This document shows positions 33,332 through 63,843 of a stretch of DNA of 64,000 nucleotides, in pieces. The notes under the pieces are model-generated. The model was not told the DNA's origin. It made no database searches and saw only the letters and a program-made list of their open reading frames with translations. Location: positions 158,524 to 222,523 of the forward strand of contig CAZUKA010000001.1 of the NCBI GenBank assembly GCA_964620905.1, in the 5' to 3' direction. The translations under genes were made by a program, and so were the position numbers. How positions within the stretch are numbered: position 1 is the first letter of the stretch; every line of letters starts with the position of its first letter. The stretch is from an uncultured Gammaproteobacteria bacterium (GTDB taxonomy: Bacteria; Patescibacteriota; Patescibacteriia; S139-126).

Positions 33332-34057
33332 CTAAATTTTTTCGGCAATAACCACCAATCGCTGTTGAGAGGTAAATAAAGGTGTACACGAAAATAAAGT
33401 TAAACGATCACTAGCGGTATTATGAAGAATAGTAAGATCATCAGGTTCAATAATTTTAGTATCAGAGACCTTATATTCGTATTTTTCTCCTTCCCAATAT
33501 AAAGTAATTATATCACCAGATTGAAGCTTATCTAATAAATAAAAAGTTTTGGGACTAGGAGGCCGATGTAAATAGCGATGAGCTGTAATTATGGTATTAC
33601 CACCAGTTGATGGAGTTGAGCCAATTGGCATACGCCAAATACCACGCCAAAGCACATCTTCATTATTTCCTTCCAAAATCTCACTATCTACTCCCATTTT
33701 AGGGATAATTATTTTATTGACTGTCTCATTTACGATTAAATCGTTTTTTGCAGATTGATTATAGCTAACACCCAAAACCTTAGTAGTATTTTCTTTTAAT
33801 TGGTCTTCGTCAGGTAGTTGTTGATTTATTGTATTATTAATCGGTAAATGTAAATCTGTTAGTAAGTAATCTTCGGGTGGTAAATTAGCAGGTAATTCAG
33901 TCAGACCATTTAGATTGGTTTTTTTATCATCTGACCAGACTGTATGAATTGGTGAGAAGATTAAGTAAATACCAATCAAAATAAAAATTAAAACAAAAAA
34001 TGACAACAAACGACCAATAAAAAATTTTTTTGATTTTGGATTTAAAAAATCAATCAT
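33332..34057 (-). CDS. Sortase (transpeptidase)
   Basis: 241 aa. N-terminal TM anchor, catalytic His (TIITAHR), Cys (LTLFSCTP) and Arg (RLVVIAE) are in the canonical order. Confidence 0.75.
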   Translation of the reverse strand: MIDFLNPKSKKFFIGRLLSFFVLIFILIGIYLIFSPIHTVWSDDKKTNLNGLTELPANLPPEDYLLTDLHLPINNTINQQLPDEDQLKENTTKVLGVSYNQSAKNDLIVNETVNKIIIPKMGVDSEILEGNNEDVLWRGIWRMPIGSTPSTGGNTIITAHRYLHRPPSPKTFYLLDKLQSGDIITLYWEGEKYEYKVSDTKIIEPDDLTILHNTASDRLTLFSCTPLFTSQQRLVVIAEKI

Positions 34058-34061
34058 GTTT

Positions 34062-47858: not shown

Positions 47859-48913
47859 TTATTTATATTTTGACCTTGGGTATCGTTGACTAAAACATCA
47901 CTCATTAATTTTTTATCTTCCAACAAAATACCCGTGCCTCGAACAACACAAGTTAGAGGGTCATCAGCGATAGTTACTGGCACTTGTGTTTCTCTAGCAA
48001 TAACACGATCAAGACCTTTGAGTAAGGCCCCGCCACCGGTCAAGGTTATCCCCCGTTCATAGACATCAGCCACCAGCTCAGGTGGTGTATTTTCAATTAC
48101 GGTTTTAATATTTTCTACCATTACCCGAATAGATCTAGTCAAAGCTTCCCGTACTTGCATATCAGAAATAGTTATTTCTTTAGGTAAGCCGGTGATCAAA
48201 TCTCGCCCTCGCACACGCATGTCTGTATGTTCTTCTAAGGGCATAGCTGAACCAATCTTTATTTTGATATCCTCGGCAGTCTTCTCGCCCAATAATAAAT
48301 TGAAGTTTTCCCGAACATAATTAATAATAGAACGATTTAGTTCATCACCAGCAAGTCTCATAGACTTCCAAGTGACAATGCCAGAAAGCGAAATTACTGC
48401 GATGTTAGTTGAACCACCACCAATATCGACTACTAAATTGGCCACGGATTCATGAACAGGAAGTCTAGCACCAATAGCTGCAGCCATTGGTTCTTCTACC
48501 AAATAAACACGACTAGCACCGGCTGATAAAGCCGCATCCTCAACTGCTTTTCTTTCTACTTCAGTGACTTCCAAAGGAATACCTATTACCACTACCGGCC
48601 TAGCTAAGAGTGAAAAACTTTCTTTATGAACTTTTTCAATAAAGTATTTCAACATTTTTTCAGTTACTTCAAAATCAGAAATCACTCCTTCAACCAGTGG
48701 CCTAATTGCTTGGATATGTTCCGGTGTTTTTCCCACCATTTTTTTTGCATCACCACCAACTGTTAAAATTTGATTGGTTCTCGTATTGACTGCCACGACC
48801 GATGGTTCATTTATTACAATACCTTTATCCTTAACATAAACCAAAGTACTGGAAGTGCCCAAATCAATTCCCATTTCTTTGGAAAATCTGGAAAAAACCT
48901 TGTTGCCGATCAT
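47855..48913 (-). CDS. mreB: Rod shape-determining actin homolog MreB
   Basis: 352 aa. GIDLGTSSTLVYV phosphate-1 and DIGGGST phosphate-2 motifs of an actin-fold ATPase. Confidence 0.9.
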   Translation of the reverse strand: MIGNKVFSRFSKEMGIDLGTSSTLVYVKDKGIVINEPSVVAVNTRTNQILTVGGDAKKMVGKTPEHIQAIRPLVEGVISDFEVTEKMLKYFIEKVHKESFSLLARPVVVIGIPLEVTEVERKAVEDAALSAGASRVYLVEEPMAAAIGARLPVHESVANLVVDIGGGSTNIAVISLSGIVTWKSMRLAGDELNRSIINYVRENFNLLLGEKTAEDIKIKIGSAMPLEEHTDMRVRGRDLITGLPKEITISDMQVREALTRSIRVMVENIKTVIENTPPELVADVYERGITLTGGGALLKGLDRVIARETQVPVTIADDPLTCVVRGTGILLEDKKLMSDVLVNDTQGQNINK

Positions 48914-50145
48914 AAAGTAAAATAATTATTTAAAAATTTCATTAATTCTGTCTCAATCATAACCTCTGATTTTTTCATTTGACGAATCTTAACTTCCATC
49001 TTACTTCCCAATTTATCGCTGATTATAACTCTAATAGGTAAACCAATCAGATCTGAATCTTTAAATTTAACTCCGGCAGATTCTATACGATCATCATATA
49101 AAACTGACCAAAACTTATTTAACTTTTGATATAATTTTTCACCTAATTTTTGCGAAGTTAAATCAACTAAATGTATTTGATAAGGAGCCACTGACTTTGG
49201 CCAAATAATTCCATCCACATCACTAAAAACCTCAACCAAAGTTCCCATAATACGCGACGGTCCTATGCCATAACAACCCATAAATACAGGTTTTTCTGTA
49301 CCATCTTTAGCTGTATAAGTAAAATCAAAACTGTCACTAAAACGAGTATTTAATTTAAATATATTTCCTATTTCAATTGCTTTTTCCTCTTGTAAGTCTT
49401 TATTTCCACAATTAGGACAAGTTGTTTGTTCACCAATTAACTCTTTATTTACTGCCACTAAACATTTGTGACAAGTAAAGATAGTATCTTCACCGGTTTT
49501 AGGTGCAATTGTCTGATATTCATGAGAATATTTGGAAAAAGCCCCGCCCGATGCATAAGTCTCATAAGTAGTTTGGTTTATTTCCAACCTTGTCCAAATC
49601 TTACGATAAGCTTTTTTTACTTCTTCATAATAATCATTTAAGTCATTTTCATCAGTATGAAAAGAGTATAAATCTTTCATCAAAAATTCACGTCCACGTA
49701 GCAGCCCAGATTTGGCTCGGGCTTCATTTCTGAATTTGGTTTGAATCTGATAAACATATATCGGCAAATCTTTGTAGGAAAATACAACTTTCTGAATTAA
49801 AGGTGTCACTAACTCTTCGTGAGTCGGATTTAAAGTAAAATCTTTATTGCCATTACCTTTTAATTTAAATAAAACATCAAACCCTTCCCAACGGCCAGTT
49901 TTTTGCCACAACGAGGCTGGTGATAAAACTGGTAATAAAATTTCCTGTCCACCGATCGCATTCATTTCTTCACGAACAATCTGACTGATGTTATTTAAAA
50001 CTTTTAAACCCAAGGGTAAATAGTTATACACCCCGGCTGTTACTTTATCTATATAACCAGCTCTGATCAAAAGCTGAGCATTTAAACTTTCTTCATCTTT
50101 TGGTATTTCTTTAATTGATTTACCAACTAATTGTGATTGTTTCAT
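48910..50145 (-). CDS. proS: Prolyl-tRNA synthetase, minimal form lacking the INS editing domain (zinc ribbon in its place)
   Basis: 411 aa. ProRS N-terminus (LLIRAGYID...GVYNYLPLG). Motif 2 is FRNE...GLLRGREFLMKDLYSFH and motif 3 is GCYGIGPSR. A class II anticodon-binding C-terminal domain is present. A CHKC...CPNCG insert lies between motifs 2 and 3. Confidence 0.8.
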   Translation of the reverse strand: MKQSQLVGKSIKEIPKDEESLNAQLLIRAGYIDKVTAGVYNYLPLGLKVLNNISQIVREEMNAIGGQEILLPVLSPASLWQKTGRWEGFDVLFKLKGNGNKDFTLNPTHEELVTPLIQKVVFSYKDLPIYVYQIQTKFRNEARAKSGLLRGREFLMKDLYSFHTDENDLNDYYEEVKKAYRKIWTRLEINQTTYETYASGGAFSKYSHEYQTIAPKTGEDTIFTCHKCLVAVNKELIGEQTTCPNCGNKDLQEEKAIEIGNIFKLNTRFSDSFDFTYTAKDGTEKPVFMGCYGIGPSRIMGTLVEVFSDVDGIIWPKSVAPYQIHLVDLTSQKLGEKLYQKLNKFWSVLYDDRIESAGVKFKDSDLIGLPIRVIISDKLGSKMEVKIRQMKKSEVMIETELMKFLNNYFTL

Positions 50146-50153
50146 AATATAAT

Positions 50154-51104
50154 CTATAAAGTTGTGATTGGCCTACTTTGAGTTATATAAAACTTACTCT
50201 TATGATAAGCCCATTCTATATCACACGCAAATTTATAATGTTTTTCAATTTGCCTACAAATTTTAGCAATCTCAACTATTTGTTTTCCGGTTAATTTTTG
50301 TCTAGATTCGTCTTTTTTTGGTACCGGCACCCATTTATTATCACCAGATACTGATTTTTGCACTATTTTTTTTGTTTGTTGAGCAATATTTATATCAATA
50401 ATAGAAAAATCTTGTTTATCAACCACGTAAGCATCAGGGGTGATTTGCCCAGACACTATAGCTTCTCCCAGCCCCCAGCCGGCTTCAATTATCATCTGGT
50501 TTTTGTCCATGGTAACAGGGTGAACAGTAAAGGCAATTCCAGAAATTTCAGATTGTATCATAATTTGAACCACCACAGCCACTGAAACTTTTGCTTTTAA
50601 GAGTTTTTTTTCATTTCGGTAAAATATTGCTCTGGGAGTAAATAAAGATGACCAGCAATTTTTTACGTTTTTAATCAAATTTTTTTCAGAGGTATTCAAA
50701 TAAGTTTCCAATTCTCCAGCCCAACTCGCAACTTTTGAATCCTCGGCTGTGGCTGAAGAACGAACTGCAACATATTTGCTTTTTAATTTTTTAAACTCTT
50801 TGATTATTTCTTTTTTCAAATTTTCAGGAAATTTGGCATCAACAATTAAATCTCGAATAACGTTTGAGGCTCGATCCACTGAATTGGTGTCTTTATAATT
50901 TACTTTAGATAGTTTAGCTAAGATGTCTTGATATAAATCTGTTTCAATTAAAAAGTTGTCAAACGCACTTGCTGAGATTACAAAACCATAAGGAATCGGT
51001 ATTTTAGCTTGCATCATCTCCCCCAAAGATGCTCCTTTACCACCCGCTATATTTACATCATTTTTATCAATTTGAGAAAAAAAGTGTATAAATTTTGTGT
51101 TCAT
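50154..51104 (-). CDS. Stand-alone PEP synthase / PPDK N-terminal ATP-grasp nucleotide-binding domain protein (PPDK_N)
   Basis: 316 aa. NIAGGKGASLGEM, VAVRSSATAEDS, LFTPRAIFYR, GWGLGEAIVSG and a C-terminal DIEWAYHKSKFYITQSRP motif track the PEPS N-terminal domain. The protein ends where the His domain would normally begin. Confidence 0.7.
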   Translation of the reverse strand: MNTKFIHFFSQIDKNDVNIAGGKGASLGEMMQAKIPIPYGFVISASAFDNFLIETDLYQDILAKLSKVNYKDTNSVDRASNVIRDLIVDAKFPENLKKEIIKEFKKLKSKYVAVRSSATAEDSKVASWAGELETYLNTSEKNLIKNVKNCWSSLFTPRAIFYRNEKKLLKAKVSVAVVVQIMIQSEISGIAFTVHPVTMDKNQMIIEAGWGLGEAIVSGQITPDAYVVDKQDFSIIDINIAQQTKKIVQKSVSGDNKWVPVPKKDESRQKLTGKQIVEIAKICRQIEKHYKFACDIEWAYHKSKFYITQSRPITTL

Positions 51105-51154
51105 CCAATCTAAATAAATTTTTTATATCATAATTTTATCACACTTTTATATTA

Positions 51155-51183
51155 TTGACAATTTCTAAAAAATATGCTATACT
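51155..51183 (+). promoter_or_regulatory. Strong sigma-70 promoter plus Shine-Dalgarno for the M20 amidohydrolase gene
   Basis: Perfect TTGACA, 17-nt spacer, then TATACT. An AAGGAGA RBS lies 7 nt upstream of the ATG at 51238. Confidence 0.5.
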
Positions 51184-51237: not shown

Positions 51238-52422
51238 ATGATTTCAAATCACAAGATCGCCACGGATCTAAATCAAATATTACTTGCCACCCGAAAAGAA
51301 TTTCACAAAATTCCAGAAATACGTTTTAAAACAGAACAAACAAGAACTCTAATAGAAAAATTTCTAAAAGAAAGGATAGATGATTCTTTATATGATACCA
51401 GTATTTTCACAAGCGAAGGTGGTTACTGGCTCGACGTAGTCACTGATCCAACTCTTCCATTCATTGCTATTAGGGCTGACTTTGATGCTTTAGCAATAAC
51501 CGAAAAGACAAATCTTTCATATTCATCTACCATTCCTGGTTTTATGCACGCCTGTGGTCATGATATACATACTGCCTGGCTCCTCACAACACTTGATGCG
51601 GTCATGAGTTATGACCTGCAACTAAGAAGCAATATTAGATTTATTTTTGAAGACGGTGAAGAAAATCCAATCACTCAACCCGGCGCTGACTTTCTCATTG
51701 CAGATGGTGTACTTGAAAAAGTCACCGAAATCTACGGTCTTCATATCTGGGCAGATCCAAATTGTACTCCTGGTACTTTCTATTCTAGAAGCGGAGCGCT
51801 TTTAGGAAATTCCGGTAGATTAGGTATGAAACTGACCTGTAAAGGCGGTCATGTTGCCAGTCCGAATATGGGCAACAATGCGCTACGTATTTATGCAGAA
51901 ATCAATGAAGCTTTGCAAAATATGAAGGCGGCTTTTAATCCAATAGAGCCCATTGTAATTGAGCCGACCACAGTTCTGTGTGGTAAACCAGATGGAGCTA
52001 GCTCGAATATTATGCCAGCAGAAATGGAAGTCTGGTGGGGCGTTAGGTCAATGCTGCCAAGTAAAGATCATAACGAATTTATAGCAAAAATTGCTGAGAC
52101 AATTAAAATAATCGCTGATAAGTATCAGGCAAAAGTCCAATTTACCCCAATTAGTGGTCATCCGTCAACAATCAACGATCCTAACTCGATTGAATTAGTA
52201 AATTCAAAATTAATAAAAAACGCACTAACCACTGATTTAAATCACCCACCGATTCTTGGTGGAGAGTCTTTCGGAAGATATTTGGAAAAAGTTTCCGGAT
52301 CATTCTGGATGCTTGGCGCTTACAAGATGGGTTGCGGTTTCCATCATGAACCAACTTTTAATCCTGATGAAAAGCAATTCTCAAAAGGAGTAGAATTCTT
52401 CTTGTCTCTTATAACTGTTTAG
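51238..52422 (+). CDS. M20D-family amidohydrolase (N-acyl-amino-acid/hippurate hydrolase-like)
   Basis: 394 aa. Metal-binding ACGHD.H, an Asp/Glu pair (EDGEE), and a dimerisation insert typical of M20D. Confidence 0.75.
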   Translation: MISNHKIATDLNQILLATRKEFHKIPEIRFKTEQTRTLIEKFLKERIDDSLYDTSIFTSEGGYWLDVVTDPTLPFIAIRADFDALAITEKTNLSYSSTIPGFMHACGHDIHTAWLLTTLDAVMSYDLQLRSNIRFIFEDGEENPITQPGADFLIADGVLEKVTEIYGLHIWADPNCTPGTFYSRSGALLGNSGRLGMKLTCKGGHVASPNMGNNALRIYAEINEALQNMKAAFNPIEPIVIEPTTVLCGKPDGASSNIMPAEMEVWWGVRSMLPSKDHNEFIAKIAETIKIIADKYQAKVQFTPISGHPSTINDPNSIELVNSKLIKNALTTDLNHPPILGGESFGRYLEKVSGSFWMLGAYKMGCGFHHEPTFNPDEKQFSKGVEFFLSLITV

Positions 52423-52440
52423 TTATTAGTTATAAGAAAA

Positions 52441-52471
52441 CCCCTGATTATTTTAATCAGGGGTTATTTTT
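52441..52471. terminator. Bidirectional rho-independent terminator
   Basis: CCCCTGATTAttttTAATCAGGGG perfect 10-bp stem followed by a T-run, and preceded by an A-run. Sits between the convergent 51238 (+) and 52470 (-) genes. Confidence 0.55.
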
Positions 52472-53402
52472 ATATATTTATATCTAAATAATAACTCAAT
52501 AGTGCTGCTCCTAAAATATTATATGGCTCTTTTTTAGCATACATAGCCCGAGGATCATCATCAACTTCTTTATCAACTTCGAATATCCTTGGTTTTAACA
52601 TGTATAAAACAGAATCATTTTTCATTCTTTTCATATGTTCTTTGGTAATAGGAATATAACTCTTTAATATTAAATCTTCTTTTTCTTTGGGAAATTTATC
52701 AGTTGGTATAATTCCTTTTTGTAGACCACGAGTCAAAAATAATATGTCAACATCACCAATAAAATTATCTAACTTATCATAATAAATACCTTTGGCACCG
52801 TTTCTTTTTGCCTGTTCCTCAACTTCTTTTGGTAGCGGAAAATGACCAAGATCATCAATAAACAACTCGACGCCATAATATCCTAAGATTGGTACCATTG
52901 ATTTTGTTGCTCGATTTATTTCTGGAGTACCGTAAATACCTATTTTTGTTCCCTGTAAAGGTCTCTTTAAATAATGAAACATATTGCAAATTATCCAGGG
53001 TGTACCGACTGGGTGTTCTTTTGAACCACTACCGCAGTTTAAAAGTGGTACATATGAATACGGTGAACAACGTTCAGCAGAGTCATCATCTTGATGTCTG
53101 AGGGCTATAAGGTCGGAAAAACAACTGTATTCCCTAACTGTATCTTCTAAGCTTTCCCCTTTCTCCATCGAAAGCCCTTGTTCTCCGATTGTACCTATCC
53201 ATCCACCTCCCATACGTAAAATGCTTGATTGAAACATATTCATAGTTCTAGTTGAAGGTTGGAAAAAAAGGGTAGATACGATTTTTCCTCTTGCTAACTC
53301 TGGTGATATTCCATTTTTTTCAAAATACTCAAATCTTTTTAAGATTTCATCATAATCACTTTTTGATAAGTCGTTTGAAGAAATAAGATGTTTTAAAGGC
53401 AT
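52470..53402 (-). CDS. Aspartate/ornithine carbamoyltransferase-fold protein with degenerate catalytic motifs
   Basis: 310 aa. FQPSTRTMNMFQSSILRMGG (STRTR becomes STRTM). DTVREYSCFSDLIALRH matches the ATCase DTARVLS..D.IVIRH segment. NCGSGSKEHPVGT corresponds to NAGDG..HPTQ. The C-terminal YMLKPR replaces HPLPR. Confidence 0.55.
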   Translation of the reverse strand: MPLKHLISSNDLSKSDYDEILKRFEYFEKNGISPELARGKIVSTLFFQPSTRTMNMFQSSILRMGGGWIGTIGEQGLSMEKGESLEDTVREYSCFSDLIALRHQDDDSAERCSPYSYVPLLNCGSGSKEHPVGTPWIICNMFHYLKRPLQGTKIGIYGTPEINRATKSMVPILGYYGVELFIDDLGHFPLPKEVEEQAKRNGAKGIYYDKLDNFIGDVDILFLTRGLQKGIIPTDKFPKEKEDLILKSYIPITKEHMKRMKNDSVLYMLKPRIFEVDKEVDDDPRAMYAKKEPYNILGAALLSYYLDINI

Positions 53403-53421: not shown

Positions 53422-54345
53422 TTATTTTTTATTTATTATATCTTCAATTATTTTAAAGGGTATTTCTTCATTAAATTCAAATAATAAATTTCCTTCTTTA
53501 TCATCCTTTTTATAAATTAACCTTACACGTGATTCGTTTTTACCTTCAATATTATCTATCTCAACCTCAAAACCTTCAGCAAAATCTACACCTTGATTGC
53601 CCAAAGCTTTTACCAATTTATCCCTTTCCTCTTGACCTTTAATCTTCTCTACCACCCGACATAAAAATAAATCCAAAGCCCCAGCGTGACTACCAAGAAA
53701 TCTTTCCAGTTGTTTACCATACTTTTTTTCATTATTTTTGTCTTCAATCAATTTACCAAAATTTTTTGCAATTTTTGTATATTTATCAATTATCTGCGCT
53801 AAATTTCCTGCTGCTCTTAGATAAGTTGTGCTTTTATCATCACCTAATTTTTCAGCAATTTTATCACTTTCCTCAACCATCCATTTTAAACCAGAATTGT
53901 TACTATATGCTTGGTTGCTCTGTGATTCAAATTCATCATTATAAAAAGCAAATCCAAGTCTTTTATCTTCACCCAGTCTTGTTCCATATTCTAATTTTTT
54001 ACCGTCAATAAAATTTAGTTTTTCTTTTAATTCATCTAGTGTTTCTTCACCAGTAATATGATCTCTACCTATAGCCCCAGCCATTTCAAATCCCCCAGCT
54101 TGCTGTGAACGGATGATATTACTTCCCATTGCCAAAGAGGCATCACTTGCTGGATACTCGGATTTACCTTTTTCTAATGCTTGCTCTTTACCTTTACGTG
54201 TTAATTCTTGTTCAAGATTGGTTCTATCTGGTCTTTTTTCTTTCTCTCCGTGTCTAGTAATATGCAGTAAAACACGACTTTTAATATTTTCTTGTGGTTC
54301 TTTATTTTCAAAATTGGTTTTTGAAAAAAACTCCTTAAATTTCAT
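53422..54345 (-). CDS. Hypothetical protein, possibly histidine-phosphatase (PGM branch)-like
   Basis: 307 aa. N-terminal LLHITRHGEK...LT.KG.EQA resembles the RHG phosphohistidine motif of the histidine phosphatase superfamily. Weak. Confidence 0.3.
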   Translation of the reverse strand: MKFKEFFSKTNFENKEPQENIKSRVLLHITRHGEKEKRPDRTNLEQELTRKGKEQALEKGKSEYPASDASLAMGSNIIRSQQAGGFEMAGAIGRDHITGEETLDELKEKLNFIDGKKLEYGTRLGEDKRLGFAFYNDEFESQSNQAYSNNSGLKWMVEESDKIAEKLGDDKSTTYLRAAGNLAQIIDKYTKIAKNFGKLIEDKNNEKKYGKQLERFLGSHAGALDLFLCRVVEKIKGQEERDKLVKALGNQGVDFAEGFEVEIDNIEGKNESRVRLIYKKDDKEGNLLFEFNEEIPFKIIEDIINKK

Positions 54346-54350: not shown

Positions 54351-55799
54351 TTATTTAATAATCTTTATCTCTCCTGTATTTGCATCTATTTGTATTATAT
54401 CACCATTTTTCAATTTTTTTGTAGCGATTTTAGTGCCAATAATACATATCTTACCAAGCTCACGTGAAACCACAGCAGCATGTGACATCAATCCCCCAAT
54501 ATCAGTGACAACGGCTTTAGCTTGTCGCATTAAGTGGATATAATCAGGTGAAGTCATTGGTGCTACCAAAATTTCACTTGGTTTAATTTTTTTTAATTGA
54601 CGAGGCGAAAATACTACTCTGACAGTTCCGGTAATTTTTTTGTTAGAACGATTCGCAACTACACCAACTATTTTTTTATTATTCTGCTGGCTATCTATTT
54701 GTTTTAATATTGGATTGAAAAACTTTTTTGCTTTTTTACCAAAAATCAATTGGTAATTAGCATTTTTAATTAAAAATATAAAATATCCTTTTCTTTTTTT
54801 TAAATCGATTTGACCAATTTTATTTCCTTTTAAACCCAAATCTAACCATTCTTCAGCTGTATAATATAAAAGATCAGATTTTTTTACATGATAAAATACT
54901 GCTAAGGAATCCAATATTTTATCAAAACTACTGTGTGCCCACCAAGATTTTGCTTTTCTATCATCTTGCCACCATAAAGAAAATGATAAAGCTTGTGAAA
55001 TATTCAAATAATTTTTGGATAAATTATATTTATTTATTATATCTGCTTTATTTTTTATAACTCTATTTTTATAATAACTTAAATTATCATAAATTGATTT
55101 TGCTTTTTTCTTATTATATGATTTTAACCGAGCAAACCATTCACCAGCACCAATATAGTAAATCTGATAATAACTATTATCAACCCAGTTCCATTTTTTT
55201 TCGAAATTTTTTAAGGCAACTGAAGAAGCTTTTATATTTTTTTTGCTAAAATATAATTTAAGAAGTTCAAGTTCATTTTGTTGATGAAAACTTAAATCTT
55301 CTGGTGTTAATAAAACCTCAACTATTTTATCAATTTTTTTTACATCCACGCCATCACGTTTCAATAAATTAGCTAAATATTTTGGTGCGGAAAAGTTGGC
55401 TATTTCATAAATTAATGACAATCGCCAAAATGGTATCAAGTGATTATACCATTCTTTGGTTGTTTGTTTTAATATCTTTTTATTAGTTATATTTGTTTTT
55501 TGAAGCCTTTTTGCAGCAACTGATATATTACTAATTATTTTTTTATATTCGTTCCAAATAATTTTTCTCTTTTTTTCTGGTAATATCCACTTTTCAATCG
55601 CTTCATAACCGTATTTTTCCATTAACTCTTTTTCCCAATAAAAGGTTAGACGATCATGATCATATAAACCAATCAGATGTGGCCATCTTATACCATGAAT
55701 TACCATACCAGTAGGTTTAAACCAAAACGAGGGATATAATATCCTTGCATCTATCGGCCCCCATTGGTCAATAGTATTTTTTTTATAAAAATAAGACAT
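54351..55799 (-). CDS. Paralog 1 of 7: novel N-terminal domain + C-terminal PEP-utilizing-enzyme mobile (phosphohistidine) domain
   Basis: 482 aa. The C-terminus (GTVRVVFSP...ILVAPMTSPDYIHLMRQAKAVVTDIGGLMSHAAVVSRELGKICIIGT) is the PEPS/PPDK swivelling His domain with the catalytic His. The N-domain carries WWQDDRK and W.W.DNSYY motifs. Confidence 0.7.
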   Translation of the reverse strand: MSYFYKKNTIDQWGPIDARILYPSFWFKPTGMVIHGIRWPHLIGLYDHDRLTFYWEKELMEKYGYEAIEKWILPEKKRKIIWNEYKKIISNISVAAKRLQKTNITNKKILKQTTKEWYNHLIPFWRLSLIYEIANFSAPKYLANLLKRDGVDVKKIDKIVEVLLTPEDLSFHQQNELELLKLYFSKKNIKASSVALKNFEKKWNWVDNSYYQIYYIGAGEWFARLKSYNKKKAKSIYDNLSYYKNRVIKNKADIINKYNLSKNYLNISQALSFSLWWQDDRKAKSWWAHSSFDKILDSLAVFYHVKKSDLLYYTAEEWLDLGLKGNKIGQIDLKKRKGYFIFLIKNANYQLIFGKKAKKFFNPILKQIDSQQNNKKIVGVVANRSNKKITGTVRVVFSPRQLKKIKPSEILVAPMTSPDYIHLMRQAKAVVTDIGGLMSHAAVVSRELGKICIIGTKIATKKLKNGDIIQIDANTGEIKIIK

Positions 55800-55800
55800 A

Positions 55801-57189
55801 TTATTTTATTATTGTAACAACTCCATGATTGGCATTTACTTCCACTCTATCGCCGTCTTTAATCACCTTAGTCGCTATTTTTGTACCAACCACGCAGGGT
55901 TTTTTCAGTTCTCGTGCCACAATGGCTGCATGTGAGGCAATACCACCTTCATTAGTCACAAACGCAGCCGCTTTATACATAGCCGGTATATAGTTCGGAT
56001 GTGTTGTGTTGGCTATAAGAATATCACCTTTTTTTACTCGTTTTATATCATGGTAACTTTTTATTATTTTTACTTTGCCTCTAGCTAATCCTGTATAAGC
56101 ACTTAGGCCTTGCAATACTACTATTTTTTTTGTATTTAATTCTATTTTTTTTATTATTTCCAAATATTTTTTTATTTTTTTATCAATCACCCAAGTTTCC
56201 AATGTAAAACTATTTCCTGTTATTATGACCTTGTGTTTTTTTCTATAAGCAATAATATCTGATGGTAACTGATTCTGTACTAAACAATCACTTATTTCTT
56301 TGAAACTTAAGTAACCAAGATCATTACGATCAATATTAAAACGCATAGCTATAGTATCAAACAAAAAAGTCCAATTATAAACATATTGCCTTCTAACATC
56401 GTCACGAAAATCTTTGAAAAATATAATATAAGGCGCCAAATCAATATGATATTTTTCTTGTTTAGTGGGTTTAAGTAGTTTGTATAATTTCTGGTGTGAT
56501 ATATTTTTTATCTCATTCTTACTGATGCTTTTCTTCTTAAACTGCTGTATCCATTTTTTATCAATCGGACGATACCAAATTGCAGACCAACTACGTAAAA
56601 ATTGATATTTATCTATAAGTTTGGATATAGGAAAATTTGACTGTAAATCTTGTTGTAATCTGATAATGGCTGTTGTTCGCCAACTTTTATATATAGACGA
56701 CATAATTTCCTCATACCTATTTTCTAATCCTCTCTTTTTTATCAACTTACTAAGTATGTTTTCTGAATCAATTTGCCACGTTTCTATACCCCACCAAGGC
56801 CAAATACTAAATCGATAATTTATCTTATCAAAACCAGTCAGAAAATCTTCTAGAGCTTTAATTTGCCACTGAAAGGAATCTGTGTATTCAAATTTTTTCC
56901 AATAATTAATTTTTTTATTATATTTTTTTATTATTTCCTTACCCTCTATATAATATTTCTTAGCTTGATCAACACTTTTAAAAAAATGTTTATAAATAAT
57001 TCTACCAACTTCTAATTCATCAACAGAGAGATAATGAGTAAGGATTTTATTTTCAATTATAGTAAAAAATGGTTCTTTTATTTTATTTTCAACCAAACGT
57101 GAACAATCAATAAAAACTTTGTCTAAAACAGATATTGTTGCGATATCAACACCTTCTCGAGTAATTAATTTTTTCCATTTATATTTCAT
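55801..57189 (-). CDS. Paralog 2 of 7: N-terminal variable domain + C-terminal phosphohistidine domain
   Basis: 462 aa. C-terminus ...TTHPNYIPAMYKAAAFVTNEGGIASHAAIVARELKKPCVVGT. Confidence 0.7.
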   Translation of the reverse strand: MKYKWKKLITREGVDIATISVLDKVFIDCSRLVENKIKEPFFTIIENKILTHYLSVDELEVGRIIYKHFFKSVDQAKKYYIEGKEIIKKYNKKINYWKKFEYTDSFQWQIKALEDFLTGFDKINYRFSIWPWWGIETWQIDSENILSKLIKKRGLENRYEEIMSSIYKSWRTTAIIRLQQDLQSNFPISKLIDKYQFLRSWSAIWYRPIDKKWIQQFKKKSISKNEIKNISHQKLYKLLKPTKQEKYHIDLAPYIIFFKDFRDDVRRQYVYNWTFLFDTIAMRFNIDRNDLGYLSFKEISDCLVQNQLPSDIIAYRKKHKVIITGNSFTLETWVIDKKIKKYLEIIKKIELNTKKIVVLQGLSAYTGLARGKVKIIKSYHDIKRVKKGDILIANTTHPNYIPAMYKAAAFVTNEGGIASHAAIVARELKKPCVVGTKIATKVIKDGDRVEVNANHGVVTIIK

Positions 57190-58748
57190 TTTGGTAAATA
57201 AATTTTTCCATTATTGGCATCAACTTCAATCAACTGCCCGGTTTCAACTACCTTAGTGGCAATTCTAGTTCCTATTACACAAGGTTTCTTAAGCTCCCTA
57301 GATACTATAGCCGCGTGGGTGGTTATACCACCTTGTTCGGTAACAATAGCGCCTGCTCGTTTCATTGCTGGGACAAAATCAGGGGTTGTATTATTAGTAA
57401 CTAATATTTCACCTGTTTTTAACTTACTCAAATCTTTAATATTTAAAATTACTCTAGCTTTTCCGATAACTTTCCCTGGACATGCAGTTACACCATTAAT
57501 GACTTTGGTATTTTTATTTACTTTTTCAAATATATTTCTGTCAATTTTATTAAATTCATTATTTTCAAAAAATTTCCAACCTTTTGGACACACATAAAAT
57601 GCACATCCCTTTTGTCTATTTTTTACCTTTATTTTGTTAATCTTACCATGTAAAATTAAATCTTTCATCTCTGGATCATAAGTAAAACAAATATCTTTTT
57701 TATCAATTTTATAACGTCTGGCTAATTCATTTAGAATTGTAAAAATATAATGATTGGTTCTAAAAACACCAGACTTTCTTGTATCTTGCCACTTAGTAAA
57801 AATATCCGTGTATTTAATCAAATTTTTAAAATATAAATTTAATTTTAATTTTTTTATTAATAAATTCTTAGTATACAAATTTTTTGATTTGTTACTTTCT
57901 ACCTTATATTTTTTCAGTATATCTCTTTCAGTTAAAAATAATCTCCTTGCTTTCTCAATAAAATAGAAAGTTTTCAATGGCTCTGAATCATAATAACTAT
58001 TTTCTACCCAATAATATTTTTTTTGATGTTGATCAAATAAGTTTAAAAAATTTTTATTTTCACAAATAAAATTAATAAAATTTTTTTTACTTTTTAAATG
58101 AGTATATATTTTTTTATTTTTTCCAATTTTTAAGCATAGTTGCAAAAGTCCTACTAATTCTTGCTGTGTAAAGGTATCATAAACAGGCAGTGTTAAAATA
58201 TGTAACTTTTTTTCTATATTTTTCTCTTTTAATCTATTTAATTCCTTGGATAAAAGTTCTAAATACCAATCTTTTTCTTTATTTGATAAAAATGAGTCAA
58301 CTAAATATGGTAATGTACTTTCATAAATATACGCTTCTTTTAATTCTTCATATAACTTATATATAGTTTCAGGTTTCGTATTTTTTAGATCAATATTATC
58401 AAATTTTTTATAAATTTTTTTTAGCTGTCGCCAATCTTTTTCCCACTGCTTATACCAGGAATCAATTTTTCTTGGATTATTTTTTATTAATTTGAGGATA
58501 CGACCGCGCACACGTTCTAAATCACGATTATCCCAAAACCAATGCAATCTATTATTCTCAAGATAGCAAAAAGCGGTACGATAAGTGTTTGGCACTCGTT
58601 TATTGATATAGTATACACAGCCGTAACCTACTAAAAATAATGGGTTTAGTACCCCAGACCAACTTTTTTCATACCAATCTCTATTTGAGATATAGTCTTT
58701 AGTAAAAATTTTATACGATTTTGCTAATTCTGGTATTTTCATTATCAT
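57186..58748 (-). CDS. Paralog 3 of 7: N-terminal variable domain + C-terminal phosphohistidine domain
   Basis: 520 aa. C-terminus GGITTHAAIVSRELKKPCVIGT. The N-domain has TKWQDTRK and YYWVENSYY motifs. Confidence 0.7.
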   Translation of the reverse strand: MIMKIPELAKSYKIFTKDYISNRDWYEKSWSGVLNPLFLVGYGCVYYINKRVPNTYRTAFCYLENNRLHWFWDNRDLERVRGRILKLIKNNPRKIDSWYKQWEKDWRQLKKIYKKFDNIDLKNTKPETIYKLYEELKEAYIYESTLPYLVDSFLSNKEKDWYLELLSKELNRLKEKNIEKKLHILTLPVYDTFTQQELVGLLQLCLKIGKNKKIYTHLKSKKNFINFICENKNFLNLFDQHQKKYYWVENSYYDSEPLKTFYFIEKARRLFLTERDILKKYKVESNKSKNLYTKNLLIKKLKLNLYFKNLIKYTDIFTKWQDTRKSGVFRTNHYIFTILNELARRYKIDKKDICFTYDPEMKDLILHGKINKIKVKNRQKGCAFYVCPKGWKFFENNEFNKIDRNIFEKVNKNTKVINGVTACPGKVIGKARVILNIKDLSKLKTGEILVTNNTTPDFVPAMKRAGAIVTEQGGITTHAAIVSRELKKPCVIGTRIATKVVETGQLIEVDANNGKIYLPK

Positions 58749-59905
58749 ATTTTTTTGATGATTCCATTGGTTGCATCAACTTCTACTCTATCCCCGTTTT
58801 TAAAAATTTTTGTTGCCATCTTAACATTAATTATACATGGAATTTTTAACTCCCTGGAGACTATAGCTGCATGAGATAATAATCCCCCTACTTCTGTGAT
58901 AACAGCACCGGCCTTTCTAATCACTGGCATCAAATCAGGTGAAGTACTGACTGATACCAAAATATTACCCTGATTAAAATTAGACATCTCTACCTTTAAA
59001 CTTTTTTCCAATCGGTGAGTTATTATTCTTACTTGACCAATTATTTTTCCTGGAAAAGCTGTTTTACCCTTTATTTCTTTTTTTATATTGTAATTATTTT
59101 TTTCTTTTACTGGTTTTATATCTAATCTATAATTTGATTTTAAATAATATAGACAATAATACTTAATTCTATTATCAATTATTTCTTTGGGTACCTTTCT
59201 TCCTTTTAAAAGAAAATTTTCAAGTTCTTTATATTTTAAATTTTGGGCTTGTAATACAGTAAAATTCATACGATTACCTATCTCTTCATATAGTTTCTTT
59301 ACCTTCAAAAAAGTATTTAAATATACGTCATGCATTTCCAATCTACGTTTACCAATTAACCTAAGGTCATTAATTGTTTCTTTTAATTTAGACGCGATTT
59401 TAAAATCTGATTCATCATATTCACCAACTAACAACTTGTTTAAGCTGTTTTTTTTATTTTGTGGTATTTCCAAAATTATTTTGTCAATTAATTTTTGATA
59501 AACATCTGGTCTCGTAAACCTGTATACGGCCAATAATTTAGTATAGGAGTCAAAAAAATCTTTGAATAACATAAAAAGTCTCCTGTTATTTAAATTAATC
59601 AATCTAAATTTTTTTATATAATTAGCTATTTTAAAAACTTCTTTTTCAATTTTTTTTGTGGTAGCTATGTATTTTATTACATAATTATGATCTTGATATT
59701 TTTTGTAACCTATTATATTTACTTCATTTTCAGTTTTTTTGTTTATATAAAAAGTTAAACTTTGATTTATGTTTCGAAGATAATGCCTACCATAACTATG
59801 ACCTAATATTTTTTTTCTAACTAAAACATCACCATTAAAAAGCATTTCAGAAAATGTAAAAGGAACACTATCTATTGTCCAATCTTTTTTAAATTTACTA
59901 CGCAT
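58745..59905 (-). CDS. Paralog 4 of 7 (short): N-terminal variable domain + C-terminal phosphohistidine domain
   Basis: 386 aa. C-terminus GGLLSHAAIVSRELKIPCIIN. Confidence 0.65.
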   Translation of the reverse strand: MRSKFKKDWTIDSVPFTFSEMLFNGDVLVRKKILGHSYGRHYLRNINQSLTFYINKKTENEVNIIGYKKYQDHNYVIKYIATTKKIEKEVFKIANYIKKFRLINLNNRRLFMLFKDFFDSYTKLLAVYRFTRPDVYQKLIDKIILEIPQNKKNSLNKLLVGEYDESDFKIASKLKETINDLRLIGKRRLEMHDVYLNTFLKVKKLYEEIGNRMNFTVLQAQNLKYKELENFLLKGRKVPKEIIDNRIKYYCLYYLKSNYRLDIKPVKEKNNYNIKKEIKGKTAFPGKIIGQVRIITHRLEKSLKVEMSNFNQGNILVSVSTSPDLMPVIRKAGAVITEVGGLLSHAAIVSRELKIPCIINVKMATKIFKNGDRVEVDATNGIIKKI

Positions 59906-59907
59906 AA

Positions 59908-60918
59908 TTAAAGCTTTCTGATAATCCCTTTATTGGCATCGACTTCCACACTATTGCCATCTCTGAAGATATGAGTCGCTATCTTTGTACCAATAATACA
60001 AGGTTTTTTCAGCTCACGTGACACAATTGCCGCGTGACAGGTAATTCCCCCTTCATTGGTAACAATTGCCGCTGCCTTCTTCATTGCTACTAAATAACGA
60101 GGGTCTGTCATTGAAGCTACAAGGATTTCATTCTTATTAAACTTATTTAAATCATTCATCTTCCTAATTATTTTTACGACCCCCTTTGTCTTACCTGGAT
60201 AAGCGATGCTACCGCGAAGAAACATTTTTTCTTTCACTAGCTTTTTCTTTAATTTAAAGTAAAGTTTTCCACGGCTATAAAAATTAAACTTACGGTCTTT
60301 GATTCGCAATAATAAAAAATCTTTTCTATTACTTAAATTATTAGGTAAAATGGAAGATGATAAGAAGTGTTGCAATTCACTGTCAGTCATATAGATCAAG
60401 CTCCCTTTTTTAATCTGTCTTTGACGTTCGATTATAGCTAATAGTTCAAACTCATAACTAAATGACAATTTATGTACGTTTTCAAATTTTTTTCTTGATC
60501 TCAATAAGAGTTTCTTTTCTGATTCATTCAAGTACTGACAATATACTGGCAAATAAGCTGACAAAAAAATTATTTCAGTGAAGTGAGACATCCATTTATG
60601 TAATTCCACTAAACTTAATAACGAGTTACTTGTTCTAATGGATAAAAACTCATTAAATTCCTTTAACCGCGTGAACTCAAAATCAATGAACTTCTTTAAA
60701 CCTTTAGATCCTTGGCATTTAAACCAACCATTTGTAAATTTTTTTAAATCATTTTCAACAAGATAATAATAAAATATATCTTTCTCTACCAATATATAAA
60801 AAGGATTCCAGTGAAAACCCGAGCGTTTCTCAAGATATTTACTTTGAAGCTGATTAAATACTACGGATGTGCCTAAAACAGAATAATCGCGTTGATGAGA
60901 TTGGTAATTTAATTTCAT
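59908..60918 (-). CDS. Paralog 5 of 7 (short): N-terminal variable domain + C-terminal phosphohistidine domain
   Basis: 336 aa. C-terminus GGITCHAAIVSRELKKPCIIGT (PEPS-type TCHAAI). Confidence 0.65.
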   Translation of the reverse strand: MKLNYQSHQRDYSVLGTSVVFNQLQSKYLEKRSGFHWNPFYILVEKDIFYYYLVENDLKKFTNGWFKCQGSKGLKKFIDFEFTRLKEFNEFLSIRTSNSLLSLVELHKWMSHFTEIIFLSAYLPVYCQYLNESEKKLLLRSRKKFENVHKLSFSYEFELLAIIERQRQIKKGSLIYMTDSELQHFLSSSILPNNLSNRKDFLLLRIKDRKFNFYSRGKLYFKLKKKLVKEKMFLRGSIAYPGKTKGVVKIIRKMNDLNKFNKNEILVASMTDPRYLVAMKKAAAIVTNEGGITCHAAIVSRELKKPCIIGTKIATHIFRDGNSVEVDANKGIIRKL

Positions 60919-62363
60919 AATTTTTTAATTATGCCTTTATTTGCATCAACTTCCACTCTATCGCCATCCATCAATACTTGAGTGGATATTTTTGTTCCTA
61001 TAACACAAGGGATGTCCAACTCACGAGAAATTACTGCCGCGTGACAGGTAATTCCTCCTTCATCAGTGACAATAGCCGCGGCTTTTCTCATCGCTACTAT
61101 ATAATCTGGCAGGGTCATTCCACAAACCAAAATATCATTTTTTTTGACTTTTTTTAGTGCTTCAGCAGCACCGCTACATACCTTTACGGTTCCAATTACT
61201 TTACCTTTTGAAACTGGAATACCGCATATAAAATCTCCTATTTTTTTATTAGTAGTTTCTTTAATAAATTTGTTTTTAATTTTTATTGCATCTTGACCAC
61301 TATAAATAATTTCTTTGTTTTTTGTGATGTAAACAGCCGCTCCTTTTTTTCTTTTACTAATTAATTTATAATTAACTTCATTACCTTTCAATAAATCAAT
61401 AACTTCATTGAAAAATAACCACTCGAGATCATTAAGTTTCAATTTTTTTCGTCTAGATATTTCTTTTAGTAATAGATAAAAAGAATAAACGGATTTGGCT
61501 TGCATTTCTTTTCTTAACTCGTGAATTTCCGCATATTTATCAAAAAAATCAAGCCAGTGAGTTATTTTTTTATTGATTAGAAATTTATTAATAATTTTGT
61601 TTTTTTCTTCTTTTAAATTTTTCAAATAGTTTTTATCTCGAACCAAAATCTTTTTTAAATCAGTCTTTTTCTGATACTGTTTAATTATTTTTCTAAAATC
61701 ATCGTAAACCAATGGCTTCATGTTTTCCCAACCAATTTTTGTCCACCAATACTTATTATATAACTTACTAATCTCATGTTCATATATTTTTTTCTTTAAC
61801 GCCAATCTTATAATACTTATTTCTTCTCGTTTACTAAAAGAAAGATAAACCGGATTGGAAAGAATATTATAAATGTAATTTAAATTATCCATTTTTATTT
61901 TTTTTGAATAATTTTTAATTTTCGATTTTAAAAATATTTCTGACACAAAATCAATCGCGTCAACATCTGTGTTTAATAAACCATGGGCAGGAGAAGTTTG
62001 GTCAATCAAAAAATAAAAAAAATTTAAAATTTCTTTATCAGATAAATTTGTTAAGTCTGTATTTCTGATCTCTTCTGAAGCTTTAAAAGCTTTAGCAATT
62101 AAGTTGTATATTTTATTTAGGTGATAATCTTTATTTTTCTTTATACTACAAAATTTAAGTATTTTTTTTCCTAAATTTTGTAATTCCTTTTTCGACCATC
62201 CCCACCAAAGTTTATCACCAATATTTATATAAAAAGTTGAATAAAATTTGCCAATATTCAGCCTACTGCTATAATTTTTTAAACCATAAAATACAATATC
62301 AGCCCGAAAAGGTTGGATTGTACCACGCGTATACCACACCCAGATTATTCTATCTTTTTTCAT
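60915..62363 (-). CDS. Paralog 6 of 7: N-terminal variable domain + C-terminal phosphohistidine domain
   Basis: 482 aa. C-terminus GGITCHAAVISRELDIPCVIGT. Confidence 0.7.
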   Translation of the reverse strand: MKKDRIIWVWYTRGTIQPFRADIVFYGLKNYSSRLNIGKFYSTFYINIGDKLWWGWSKKELQNLGKKILKFCSIKKNKDYHLNKIYNLIAKAFKASEEIRNTDLTNLSDKEILNFFYFLIDQTSPAHGLLNTDVDAIDFVSEIFLKSKIKNYSKKIKMDNLNYIYNILSNPVYLSFSKREEISIIRLALKKKIYEHEISKLYNKYWWTKIGWENMKPLVYDDFRKIIKQYQKKTDLKKILVRDKNYLKNLKEEKNKIINKFLINKKITHWLDFFDKYAEIHELRKEMQAKSVYSFYLLLKEISRRKKLKLNDLEWLFFNEVIDLLKGNEVNYKLISKRKKGAAVYITKNKEIIYSGQDAIKIKNKFIKETTNKKIGDFICGIPVSKGKVIGTVKVCSGAAEALKKVKKNDILVCGMTLPDYIVAMRKAAAIVTDEGGITCHAAVISRELDIPCVIGTKISTQVLMDGDRVEVDANKGIIKKL

Positions 62364-63843
62364 CTATTTTTATTATGCCTTTATTTGCATCAACTTCTAC
62401 TTTATCCCCATCCTTAATTATATCTAAAATTCCCTGTACTCCAACTACAGCAGGTTTCCCTAGCTCTCTTGAGACAATTGCTGCATGACTGGTAATTCCA
62501 CCTTCTTCTGTAATAACCGCGCCTGCTTTTCTCATAAGAGGAACATATTCTGGTCTAGTATTCGGCGCTACCAATATCTCCCCTTTTTTTAATTTATAAA
62601 AATCACGTTTATCTTTGATAATTTTTGTTCTTCCAACAGCAATACCAGGAGAGATTGGCAAACCAGTAAATATATTTTGGTTGCTAAATTTTTTGTTTAA
62701 AGATTTTAGTAATCTTATCCTTAATTCATCTTTAATAATAATCAAATTGTCTTTTTTTGGAATATAATAAATAATTCCATTAACTCTGCGTTTTTTTATT
62801 TCTAACCATTCTTTTTTTTCAAAATTAAAAGCTTTTGAATATTCACGCCAATCTAAATATTCAATAACAGATAAAGGTATATTACATCTTCTTGATAATT
62901 CTTTAGCAAATCTTTTTAAAATTTTTCCAGCTATCTGATTAGCTGCTTTTCTATCATCTCGCCAGGTAGAAATAATATTTAGAAAATCTGCAATTTTATA
63001 TAATTCTGATTTCTTATTTCTTTTTATTTTTATGTTTTGGTGTTTAATCTTATGTAAACGTTCCTGAATAAGACGTTTATAAAAATATGATAATGGCAAA
63101 CTAACAATTGAGCTGTAATCATTATGTAACCAATCAAACTCATGTTGATGATTTTGTAAAAGTCGATAAAAATGGGGGTATTTATCTTTCAGGTTGTCTA
63201 ACTGAATTCCTTGATTTATGCTCTTATTTAGTGGATATATTTTTTTTGATAAATTGACTAAATTATTAAATTTTGTCTTTTCTTTTATAAAAATAGTTTT
63301 ATAGTCGTGATTAAATAAACTATTTAAATCTGACTTATAGTTAATTAAATTATTTTTTTTAAAAAAAATGTTTAAAAATTGATCACTATAATAATCAAAC
63401 GCATCATGAAAAATTGCATTTTGCCATAACCGAAGATAACATTTAGAAAAACTTTCAAAATTTAATATTAATTTTTTATCAGAATACTTTTTTAAATCTT
63501 GATTTTCTAAATATTTAACTTTTTTTACAAAATTTTTCAAATTATTTATTAACCAAAAATTTCTTGCAGATTTAATAAAATTTTTGTTTGACTTTTGTTT
63601 TTTAATATAAAAATTGGCTACTTTGATAAGATTATTGACACTAAGCCAATCATTCATAAAATCATCTTTTATATCTAAAATAATATCACGGTAATATATG
63701 TTTAAAGGTTTATTTTTTAAATAAAAATTTCCACATGCAGATAAAGGGTAAGATCCATAAAATAATTTTGCAGCTAAACCTTGACGGTACCATTTAATAT
63801 TTTTAAAATGTATTAAATTTATCTTATTATCTTTTTTTGACAT
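62350..63843 (-). CDS. Paralog 7 of 7: N-terminal variable domain + C-terminal phosphohistidine domain
   Basis: 497 aa. C-terminus GGITSHAAIVSRELGKPAVVGV. The N-domain has TWRDDRK and DWLHNDYS motifs. Confidence 0.7.
   Translation of the reverse strand: MSKKDNKINLIHFKNIKWYRQGLAAKLFYGSYPLSACGNFYLKNKPLNIYYRDIILDIKDDFMNDWLSVNNLIKVANFYIKKQKSNKNFIKSARNFWLINNLKNFVKKVKYLENQDLKKYSDKKLILNFESFSKCYLRLWQNAIFHDAFDYYSDQFLNIFFKKNNLINYKSDLNSLFNHDYKTIFIKEKTKFNNLVNLSKKIYPLNKSINQGIQLDNLKDKYPHFYRLLQNHQHEFDWLHNDYSSIVSLPLSYFYKRLIQERLHKIKHQNIKIKRNKKSELYKIADFLNIISTWRDDRKAANQIAGKILKRFAKELSRRCNIPLSVIEYLDWREYSKAFNFEKKEWLEIKKRRVNGIIYYIPKKDNLIIIKDELRIRLLKSLNKKFSNQNIFTGLPISPGIAVGRTKIIKDKRDFYKLKKGEILVAPNTRPEYVPLMRKAGAVITEEGGITSHAAIVSRELGKPAVVGVQGILDIIKDGDKVEVDANKGIIKIDEKR

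Follow-up and report, generated by a model that had tools for sequence, protein, structure and literature searches.

In a 64,000-nucleotide stretch of contig CAZUKA010000001.1 (assembly GCA_964620905.1), hereafter the window, a gene was found that encodes a stand-alone ATP-grasp protein of 316 amino acids (aa), and the analysis led to the conclusion, to which a probability of roughly 0.78 is assigned, that this protein is the shared nucleotide-binding component of a two-component dikinase in the superfamily of rifampin phosphotransferase (RPH), serving several partner proteins. The candidate partners are the products of a tandem array of seven genes located nearby on the same strand; below, the ATP-grasp protein and its partners are referred to as the I-type and H-type components, respectively. 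The conclusion draws on domain identities, fold, sequence motifs, gene linkage and a natural fusion of both components. The gene in question is the following:

50154..51104, (-): ATP-grasp (PPDK_N) gene, 316 aa (PF01326, E = 1.5e-97), the proposed shared I-type component

The open reading frame (ORF) is intact and starts with ATG, and its product matched PF01326 over residues 18-315 (profile positions 2-311 of 328), with no second domain detected by Pfam. In comparison with solved structures, the protein could be aligned over its whole length with the ATP-grasp domains of the phosphoenolpyruvate (PEP) synthases 8a8e, 9dae and 2ols, as well as with that of RPH-Lm (5fbs, residues 6-316), and full-length homology was found with 9goj_A (E = 3.8e-46, residues 4-314), the entry for HpeI, which is the proven trans-acting ATP-grasp partner in a two-component kinase. 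The nucleotide-site motifs GGK23G, AVR115SS, ET134YL, DIE297W and Q-S-R311-P were all intact, with residues K23, R115, T134, E297 and Q309/R311 in place; their counterparts Lys22, Arg117 and Thr136 are needed for the activity of RPH (PMC4844700). These data bear out what had been proposed earlier from the sequence alone (the sequence-only reading), namely, that a complete PPDK_N domain is encoded here on its own. The same reading held that the protein stops where a His domain normally begins, which was found to be accurate: RPH's ATP-grasp domain comprises residues 1-314 (PMC4844700), and the C-terminus of the window protein (...SRPITTL316) lies no more than two residues off this boundary with the rifampin (RIF)-binding domain. 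The statements that no other ATP-grasp module is present in the neighbourhood and that the PEP-utilizers_C barrel is missing from the window agreed with the searches, since phmmer against all window ORFs of at least 60 aa returned only the self match for PPDK_N, and PEP-utilizers_C was detected in 0 of the 50 window ORFs scanned with Pfam. Stand-alone relatives of the 316-aa protein formed more than 100 clusters (defined at 90% identity), approximately 309-338 aa long, 70-77% identical and nearly all from Patescibacteria, which rules out that the gene is a pseudogene remnant, an outcome that had been named as a refutation. In public annotations, these proteins are called 'PEP synthase', 'pyruvate, water dikinase' or 'PEP-utilizing enzyme'; the NCBIfam PEP synthase models TIGR01418 and PRK06464 gave the 316-aa protein 340 bits versus a cut-off of 598 and 328 bits versus 740, respectively.

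Exactly seven ORFs of the window, arranged in tandem at 54351-63843(-), end in a PF00391 swivel domain, and the His residue of the GGxxxHAA loop is invariant in all seven paralogs, with four of the loops fitting the PEP synthase consensus GGxT(S/C)HAA. In the order of transcription, the array consists of the following genes:

62350..63843, (-): H-type paralog p497, the first gene of the array (PF00391, E = 4.4e-27, residues 419-489)
60915..62363, (-): H-type paralog p482b (PF00391, E = 1.5e-23; A2 profile, E = 2.1e-124; E-x-R-K and His)
59908..60918, (-): short H-type paralog p336 (PF00391, E = 1.6e-24; swivel His kept)
58745..59905, (-): short H-type paralog p386 (PF00391, E = 8.1e-24; swivel His kept)
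57186..58748, (-): H-type paralog p520, the one that was modelled
55801..57189, (-): H-type paralog p462 (PF00391, E = 3.8e-25; A2 profile, E = 2.9e-95; D-x-R, with Lys replaced by Asp)
54351..55799, (-): H-type paralog p482a, the last kinase gene of the array (PF00391, E = 9.4e-24; A2 profile, E = 2.7e-108; D-x-R-K and His)

The p497 protein matched the A2 family profile over its full length (E = 3.5e-117) and retained D-x-R-K and the His residue. The adjoining genes p336 and p386 (58745-60918(-)) encode proteins without the central subdomain (profile positions ~142-320); according to hmmalign and hmmsearch, the profile match of p386 is split into positions 26-141 and 321-506, and that of p336 is split likewise, with positions ~146-319 missing. 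These two genes could be the result of a lineage-specific truncated duplication, could have a different function or could be decaying, and p336 may not encode a working kinase because the catalytic D/E-x-R-K segment is absent from it. The seven partner proteins of the sequence-only reading stand as seven swivel-His ORFs, but two of them (336 and 386 aa) lack the central subdomain; similarly, the distance of 3 kb given for the array holds for the first His-domain gene (3.2 kb), whereas the end of the array operon is only 1.4 kb away.

N-terminal to their swivel domains, the paralogs contain regions of ~250-420 aa that differ strongly from each other and had no Pfam match. In NCBIfam, residues 123-517 of p520 corresponded to positions 435-817 of the fused RPH-like model PRK06241, and a profile of 88 family members aligned with residues 491-866 of RPH-Lm, placing its near-invariant QDxRK segment on R666-E667-x-x-K670 of RPH. 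These residues (Arg666, Glu667 and Lys670) are critical for the second phosphotransfer (PMC4844700). In the hmmalign alignment of the seven paralogs, the His residue, E360 and R378 (p520 numbering) were present in 7/7, D/E-x-R in 6/7 and the following Lys in 4/7 sequences. The AlphaFold2 model of p520, built from the family alignment, had a predicted local distance difference test (pLDDT) score of 94.9 and a predicted template modelling (pTM) score of 0.91. In the Foldseek search with this model, the top six matches were the six RPH-Lm entries (E from 3e-14 to 2e-11), and the remaining good structural matches covered only the ~100-residue swivel domain or were generic helical bundles. The model has the same order and fold as RPH, with a substrate domain N-terminal to the C-terminal swivel His. 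For HpeH, RPH was likewise the sole full-length structural match, with ~20% identity (PMC12167813). Thus, since the p520 model matches RPH over its full length, as HpeH does, the paralogs are H-type components, each with a predicted RPH-like substrate domain and a C-terminal phospho-His swivel. The presence of these substrate domains and the lack of PEP-utilizers_C in the window lend support to the earlier suggestion that specificity would be set by partner domains rather than by a PEP barrel.

The co-occurrence expected by the sequence-only reading was also found, as the stand-alone ATP-grasp protein and the paralog family were present together at each of the 11 other loci examined from Patescibacteria and DPANN, with one to nine paralogs each, including the loci that were reached from a paralog. 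Loci L011-L014 came from a contig scan with a single ATP-grasp protein, and the other loci were obtained by exact-protein look-ups. The ratios of ATP-grasp to H-type genes, counted within 10 kb of the ATP-grasp gene, were as follows:

L001: 1:3
L005: 1:5
L006: 1:4
L007: 1:5
L011: 1:3
L012: 1:3
L013 (contig end): 1:1
L014: 1:7
L017: 1:6
L016 (Kerfeldbacteria, reached via a paralog): 1:6
L015 (Woesearchaeota, reached via a paralog): 1:9

The PEP-utilizers_C domain was absent in all 12 related loci as well. The archaeal locus (L015, 3286-18854 of JAAOYF010000016.1) encoded one PPDK_N protein of 281 aa together with nine PEP-utilizers paralogs, an MBL-fold hydrolase and a PTA_PTB protein; from this layout, it follows that the system is common to ultra-small bacteria and archaea, and its sharing between Patescibacteria and DPANN may be due either to horizontal transfer or to common descent. 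It should be noted that some cluster-bearing contigs carry the source labels 'Gammaproteobacteria' and 'Margulisiibacteriota' (L012, CAYIOJ010000030.1; P0004/P0123, L017), which are probably binning or labelling errors.

A natural fusion of the two components was found in the 802-aa protein P0227, in which an ATP-grasp module comes first, followed by the substrate domain and then the swivel. Residues 1-313 of this protein share 60% identity with the ATP-grasp protein of the window and run continuously via ...SRPITTL into an H-type module, which is 33% identical to p520 over 480 residues. The architecture of P0227 is thus exactly the three-module one of RPH and PRK06241, whereas in the window the ATP-grasp module is a separate polypeptide. 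A structural model of this fusion, whose underlying alignment held four ATP-grasp rows, was poor in the ATP-grasp half (mean pLDDT 71.9, with long stretches below 50) and was not used. Five further proteins of 750-980 aa (P0200, P0230, P0155, P0196 and P0274) contain two swivels and are tandem H-H fusions without ATP-grasp. When only the N-domain was searched against 1.84 billion representatives, at least 674 clusters (50% identity) were obtained at E <= 1e-3; the best 150 of these 674 clusters were mostly H-type proteins of 450-530 aa, and in a few of them the domain began at ~330-360, as in a fusion.

The identity of the ATP-grasp protein between genomes was 60-77%, and the mean identity among the seven window paralogs was 49% for the swivel domains and 17% for the substrate domains. 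Such a difference between the swivels and the remainder would be expected if all paralogs dock on the same partner, and the conservation pattern as a whole fits that of a shared hub. In a close relative (L017), in which the ATP-grasp protein is 77% identical, orthologues of p520 (77%), p482b (73%) and p482a (63%) were identified, and none were found for p462, p386 and p336; therefore, the array gains and loses members. The p497 orthologue in the same locus (384-1912) is broken in two, an ORF of 419 aa and a swivel fragment of 58 aa, owing either to a frameshift or pseudogene formation or to a sequencing error.

Based on homology with RPH and with the two-component enzymes PpsAB, CreHI and HpeHI, the following mechanism may be proposed. 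The ATP-grasp protein would bind MgATP, and the swivel His of a docked H-type paralog would attack the beta-phosphate to give AMP and pyrophosphoryl-His, after which the gamma-phosphate would leave as inorganic phosphate (Pi). The phospho-His domain would then return to the RPH-like helical domain at the N-terminus of the same protein, where phosphate would pass to a hydroxyl of a small molecule in the paralog-specific cleft, with the D/E-x-R-K segment, the counterpart of Arg666-Glu667-Lys670 of RPH, aiding the transfer. The net reaction would be ATP + X-OH + H2O -> AMP + Pi + X-O-P. One charger would be common to seven partners (five full-length and two truncated) and would form a conserved hub with diversifying spokes that undergo turnover. 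Later dephosphorylation would probably be carried out by a histidine-phosphatase-like protein encoded in the array operon and, elsewhere, by HAD hydrolases. The trans-charging, the use of all partners, the chemistry and the small-molecule nature of the substrates are all suggested by analogy; in PpsAB, CreHI and HpeHI, both components are needed, and mutation of the His residue abolishes activity (PMC12167813). The central idea of the sequence-only reading, a split dikinase in which one ATP-grasp protein acts in trans on several partners, is therefore supported by the gene linkage, the P0227 fusion and these precedents.

The trans-acting ATP-grasp component of split dikinases dates back, as a known principle, to phenylphosphate synthase, and the concept of two-component small-molecule dikinases has recently generalised it (PMC12167813). 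Since PpsAB, CreHI and HpeHI are characterised, the principle of the split dikinase is established; the novelty lies in the one-to-many layout, the array composition varying between relatives and the spread across Patescibacteria and DPANN. PpsAB (Thauera/Aromatoleum), CreHI (Corynebacterium) and HpeHI (Rhodococcus) resemble the window system in having a separate ATP-grasp protein and an RPH-like protein with a swivel His, and the ATP-grasp components are similar in size (36 kDa in the window and ~40 kDa for HpeI). However, the three known systems are adjacent 1:1 pairs with ~45% mutual identity, whereas the ratio in the window is 1:7 (1-9 partners elsewhere) and the components belong to separate transcription units. 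The known systems act on phenolic substrates and are encoded in aromatic-catabolism operons, whereas the neighbours in the window are housekeeping genes, and their H partners are ~600-640 aa long, compared with ~340-520 aa in the window. In addition, the His loops of the window mostly have Thr at position -2, as in PEP synthase, and not Met as in two-component dikinases. The window parts scored nearer to PEP synthase and to the fused PRK06241 than to HpeI, and PRK08296-type models matched the swivel region only; PRK08296 is presumably the PpsA/HpeH family. From this affinity to PEP synthase and PRK06241, the split may be independent of that in PpsAB, CreHI and HpeHI.

The same module order as in the window parts is found in RPH (5HV1/5FBS) and in PRK06241 proteins, including the prodigiosin ligases PigC and RedH. 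The window substrate domain is ~18% identical to that of RPH and keeps the acidic and Lys catalytic positions but with Arg shifted; the RPH-model score was 273 bits versus a cut-off of 999, and nothing points to rifamycin as the substrate in the window. [quoted passage not shown] PEP synthase and PPDK provide the best sequence matches for both window domains, and the dikinase chemistry and swivelling mechanism would be expected to be alike; however, these enzymes have a TIM barrel and a central swivel in one chain, whereas the window system is split and has no barrel, a C-terminal swivel and a predicted second site of the RPH type. In its logic, the arrangement is also analogous to the bacterial phosphotransferase system (PTS), in which one general phosphoryl donor feeds many specificity components and whose EI His domain is homologous to the swivel. 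Unlike in the PTS, the donor in the window would be ATP via ATP-grasp and not PEP, and no HPr, EII or membrane transport component was identified. No description of these arrays was found in the literature on Patescibacteria, CPR or DPANN and dikinase or PEP-synthase-type proteins, and they are not mentioned in the paper on neighbourhoods of the type IV secretion system (T4SS) in Patescibacteria and its supplements or in the Southlakia genetics paper.

Several points weigh against a shared RPH-superfamily component. The catalytic Arg is displaced by two or three positions relative to RPH (QDxRK versus REYPK), although the acidic and Lys positions align; the ATP-grasp bit scores favour an archaeal-type PEP synthase (232 for 8a8e, versus 190 for RPH and 161 for HpeI), and the p497 swivel is nearer to the PEP synthases 8a8e and 9dae (83.6-93.3 bits) than to RPH (~64 bits). 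In p336 the whole catalytic D/E-x-R-K segment is missing, as is most of the central subdomain in p386. The ATP-grasp gene lies outside the array operon, with its own promoter-like site and with proS-mreBCD downstream. The result of a single ATP-grasp and no barrel covers the window, and the genome may encode a second ATP-grasp or a separate barrel elsewhere. Finally, trans-charging of these particular proteins is something that we infer.

The ATP-grasp protein might instead serve one or a few partners, with the other paralogs being ATP-independent transphosphorylases between metabolites, regulatory proteins or decayed copies. This would accord with the ability of HpeH alone to move phosphate from 4-phosphoacetophenone to acetovanillone (PMC12167813), with the short paralogs lacking the subdomain and p336 lacking the catalytic motif, with the absence of p462, p386 and p336 in L017, from which some copies are dispensable, and with the 1:1 pairing of all characterised two-component dikinases. 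Nevertheless, the His loop was preserved in 7/7 paralogs, the swivels were ~49% identical while the remainder was ~17% identical, and one ATP-grasp gene accompanied several H-type genes at the examined loci (with the exception of L013, a contig end, 1:1), with no other donor module nearby, so this explanation is considered unlikely. That the targets are macromolecules related to the cell envelope or secretion, and not small metabolites, could be suspected from the PrgI, TraC-like and VirB4-like genes that follow the ATP-grasp gene in L006, L007 and L016 and from a VirD4-like gene 8 kb away in the window. However, T4SS adjacency is weak evidence because gene order is dense in small genomes, and it was absent in L001, L005, L011 and L017; the characterised members of the fold all act on small molecules (PMC4844700, PMC12167813), and no secretion signals or membrane segments were evident in the p520 model, which makes targets of this kind very unlikely.

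The possibility of a multi-subunit PEP synthase or PPDK of central carbon metabolism, with the barrel encoded elsewhere and the N-terminal domains as mere scaffolds, was assessed as remote. It is true that the best matches of the ATP-grasp protein and the swivels are genuine PEP synthases, that 4/7 His loops follow GGxT(S/C)HAA and that the source label reads 'pyruvate, water dikinase', but PEP-utilizers_C was found neither in the window nor in the 12 related loci, the domain order and predicted fold are of the RPH type, the N-domain motif matches R666/E667/K670 of RPH, and seven divergent copies would be senseless for one reaction. Thus, with no barrel, the wrong domain order and the NCBIfam scores far below the cut-offs given above, the protein is not a PEP synthase. 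A further alternative is that the ORF is the decaying rest of a PEP synthase or RPH-like gene that was once full-length and that it lies near the array by accident. The stop exactly at the domain boundary and the reduced genomes of Patescibacteria would be compatible with this; nonetheless, it is hardly credible in view of the more than 100 clusters of the same length, the intact nucleotide-site motifs, the strong promoter-like site upstream and the array linkage conserved in bacteria and archaea. A pseudogene remnant, a three-piece PEP synthase and chance adjacency were accordingly rejected on the basis of the relatives, the missing barrel and the conserved linkage.

The transcription units and the remaining genes of the array operon include the following features:

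51133..51161, (-): promoter-like site TTGTCA-17-TAAAAT with a TG extension (10/12 matches; consensus match only)
52439..52465, (.): bidirectional terminator-like hairpin with a 12-bp stem and T-runs on both strands (consensus match only)
52470..53402, (-): aspartate/ornithine-carbamoyltransferase-like protein (OTCace_N, E = 2.5e-25)
53422..54345, (-): histidine-phosphatase-like protein, 307 aa, with an N-terminal 'HITRHGEK' motif, the candidate cognate phosphatase

The promoter-like site is located in a 133-bp divergent intergenic region that the ATP-grasp gene has in common with an M20-family amidohydrolase gene (51238-52422(+)). On the 3' side of the ATP-grasp gene, proS follows on the same strand after 8 nucleotides (nt), with mreB, mreC and PBP2 beyond it; from this arrangement and the separate promoter-like site, the consensus matches suggest that the hub would be transcribed together with housekeeping genes and separately from the spokes. 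The array operon runs from 63843 to 52470 and comprises, besides the seven kinase genes, those for the 307-aa and the carbamoyltransferase-like proteins, with gaps of -14 to +19 nt; the hairpin would end both this operon and the convergent M20 gene. An M20-family gene occupies the same position in a 77%-identical relative (L017, 8681-9871; L018, 750-1940), and no similarity between the window protein and the M20 proteins of the relative was detected by BLASTP at E 1e-5. The Rfam search found no riboswitch in the window, with one tRNA as the only match.

The 307-aa gene begins 5 nt past the end of the last kinase gene. Its product had no match of its own in Pfam, NCBIfam or PDB sequences, and PF00300 was detected in 7/19 of its homologues, which were 38-43% identical at 95% coverage. 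The clusters of L001, L005, L006 and L007 contained proteins that carry either the RH(G/S) motif or a His_Phos_1 match, and HAD hydrolases also recurred inside the clusters of other genomes. The pairing of kinase and phosphatase-like genes resembles that in the pathways for phenol and hydroxyphenylethanones, in which kinase and phosphatase occur together and phosphorylation is a transient activation (PMC12167813). The 307-aa protein would belong to the dikinase system. A gap of 19 nt separates the phosphatase-like gene from the carbamoyltransferase-like gene downstream of it, the last of the operon. The product of the latter was below the NCBIfam cut-off for aspartate carbamoyltransferase (148 versus 237 bits) and also below that for ornithine carbamoyltransferase, and it has altered signatures, namely, STRTM for STRTR, and HFPLP; at the related locus L017, this gene was absent. 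Its assignment to the system is uncertain.

The genomes of Patescibacteria and DPANN archaea are tiny and encode very few recognisable metabolic enzymes. In the window, ~11 kb is spent on eight dikinase genes, and relatives have up to nine partners per ATP-grasp protein. Labels of the 'PEP synthase' type wrongly imply gluconeogenesis, and reading these genes as a one-to-many split system of the RPH type corrects metabolic reconstructions. The system can also be tested enzymatically, as a single protein could serve for charging any partner in vitro; the at least 674 clusters (50% identity) obtained from one N-domain constitute a natural library of substrate-binding domains, and a shared catalytic subunit constraining the evolution of a diversifying partner family provides a clean model. 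As a tentative extension, which seems somewhat more apt to fail than to hold, one strongly conserved ATP-grasp protein would charge a large set of rapidly diversifying, often exchanged specificity proteins, each phosphorylating a different small molecule of the host or environment, either to capture and activate nutrients or to inactivate toxins and antibiotics, with dedicated phosphatases alongside. If true, PTS-like logic would have been built from dikinase parts, and this hub-and-spoke system, which here would occupy more than 1% of a ~0.7-Mb genome, would represent a module of major metabolic or defensive importance in ultra-small symbionts.

The window has a G+C content of ~30% and carries housekeeping genes typical of Patescibacteria (CPR), including mur/ftsW, secA/secDF, several aminoacyl-tRNA synthetases and mreBCD-PBP2. 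A VirD4/TrwB-like ATPase is encoded at 39364-41784(-), 8 kb from the ATP-grasp gene, and in L006 (11111-15658), L007 (11036-15768) and L016 (13092-17440) an unannotated gene for a protein of 443-566 aa is located between the ATP-grasp and T4SS genes; the neighbourhood of dikinase arrays and T4SS genes may be recurrent. The prolyl-tRNA synthetase (48910-50145(-)) is 411 aa long and matched the ~560-aa bacterial models in two separate stretches, the first of which placed residues 1-237 on model positions 1-236; from this two-stretch match to longer models, it presumably lacks the insertion (editing) domain. A class II aminoacyl-tRNA synthetase of the Asp/Lys/Asn type (17169-19280(+), 703 aa) has a C-terminal HD-domain extension, and the SecD-like protein (14010-15710(+)) contains an inserted PPIC-type peptidyl-prolyl isomerase (rotamase) at residues 150-249. 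A sortase gene adjoins the gene of a 939-aa surface protein with DUF11/SdrD-B repeats (33332-36881(-)), which is likely a sortase-anchored adhesin of an episymbiont.

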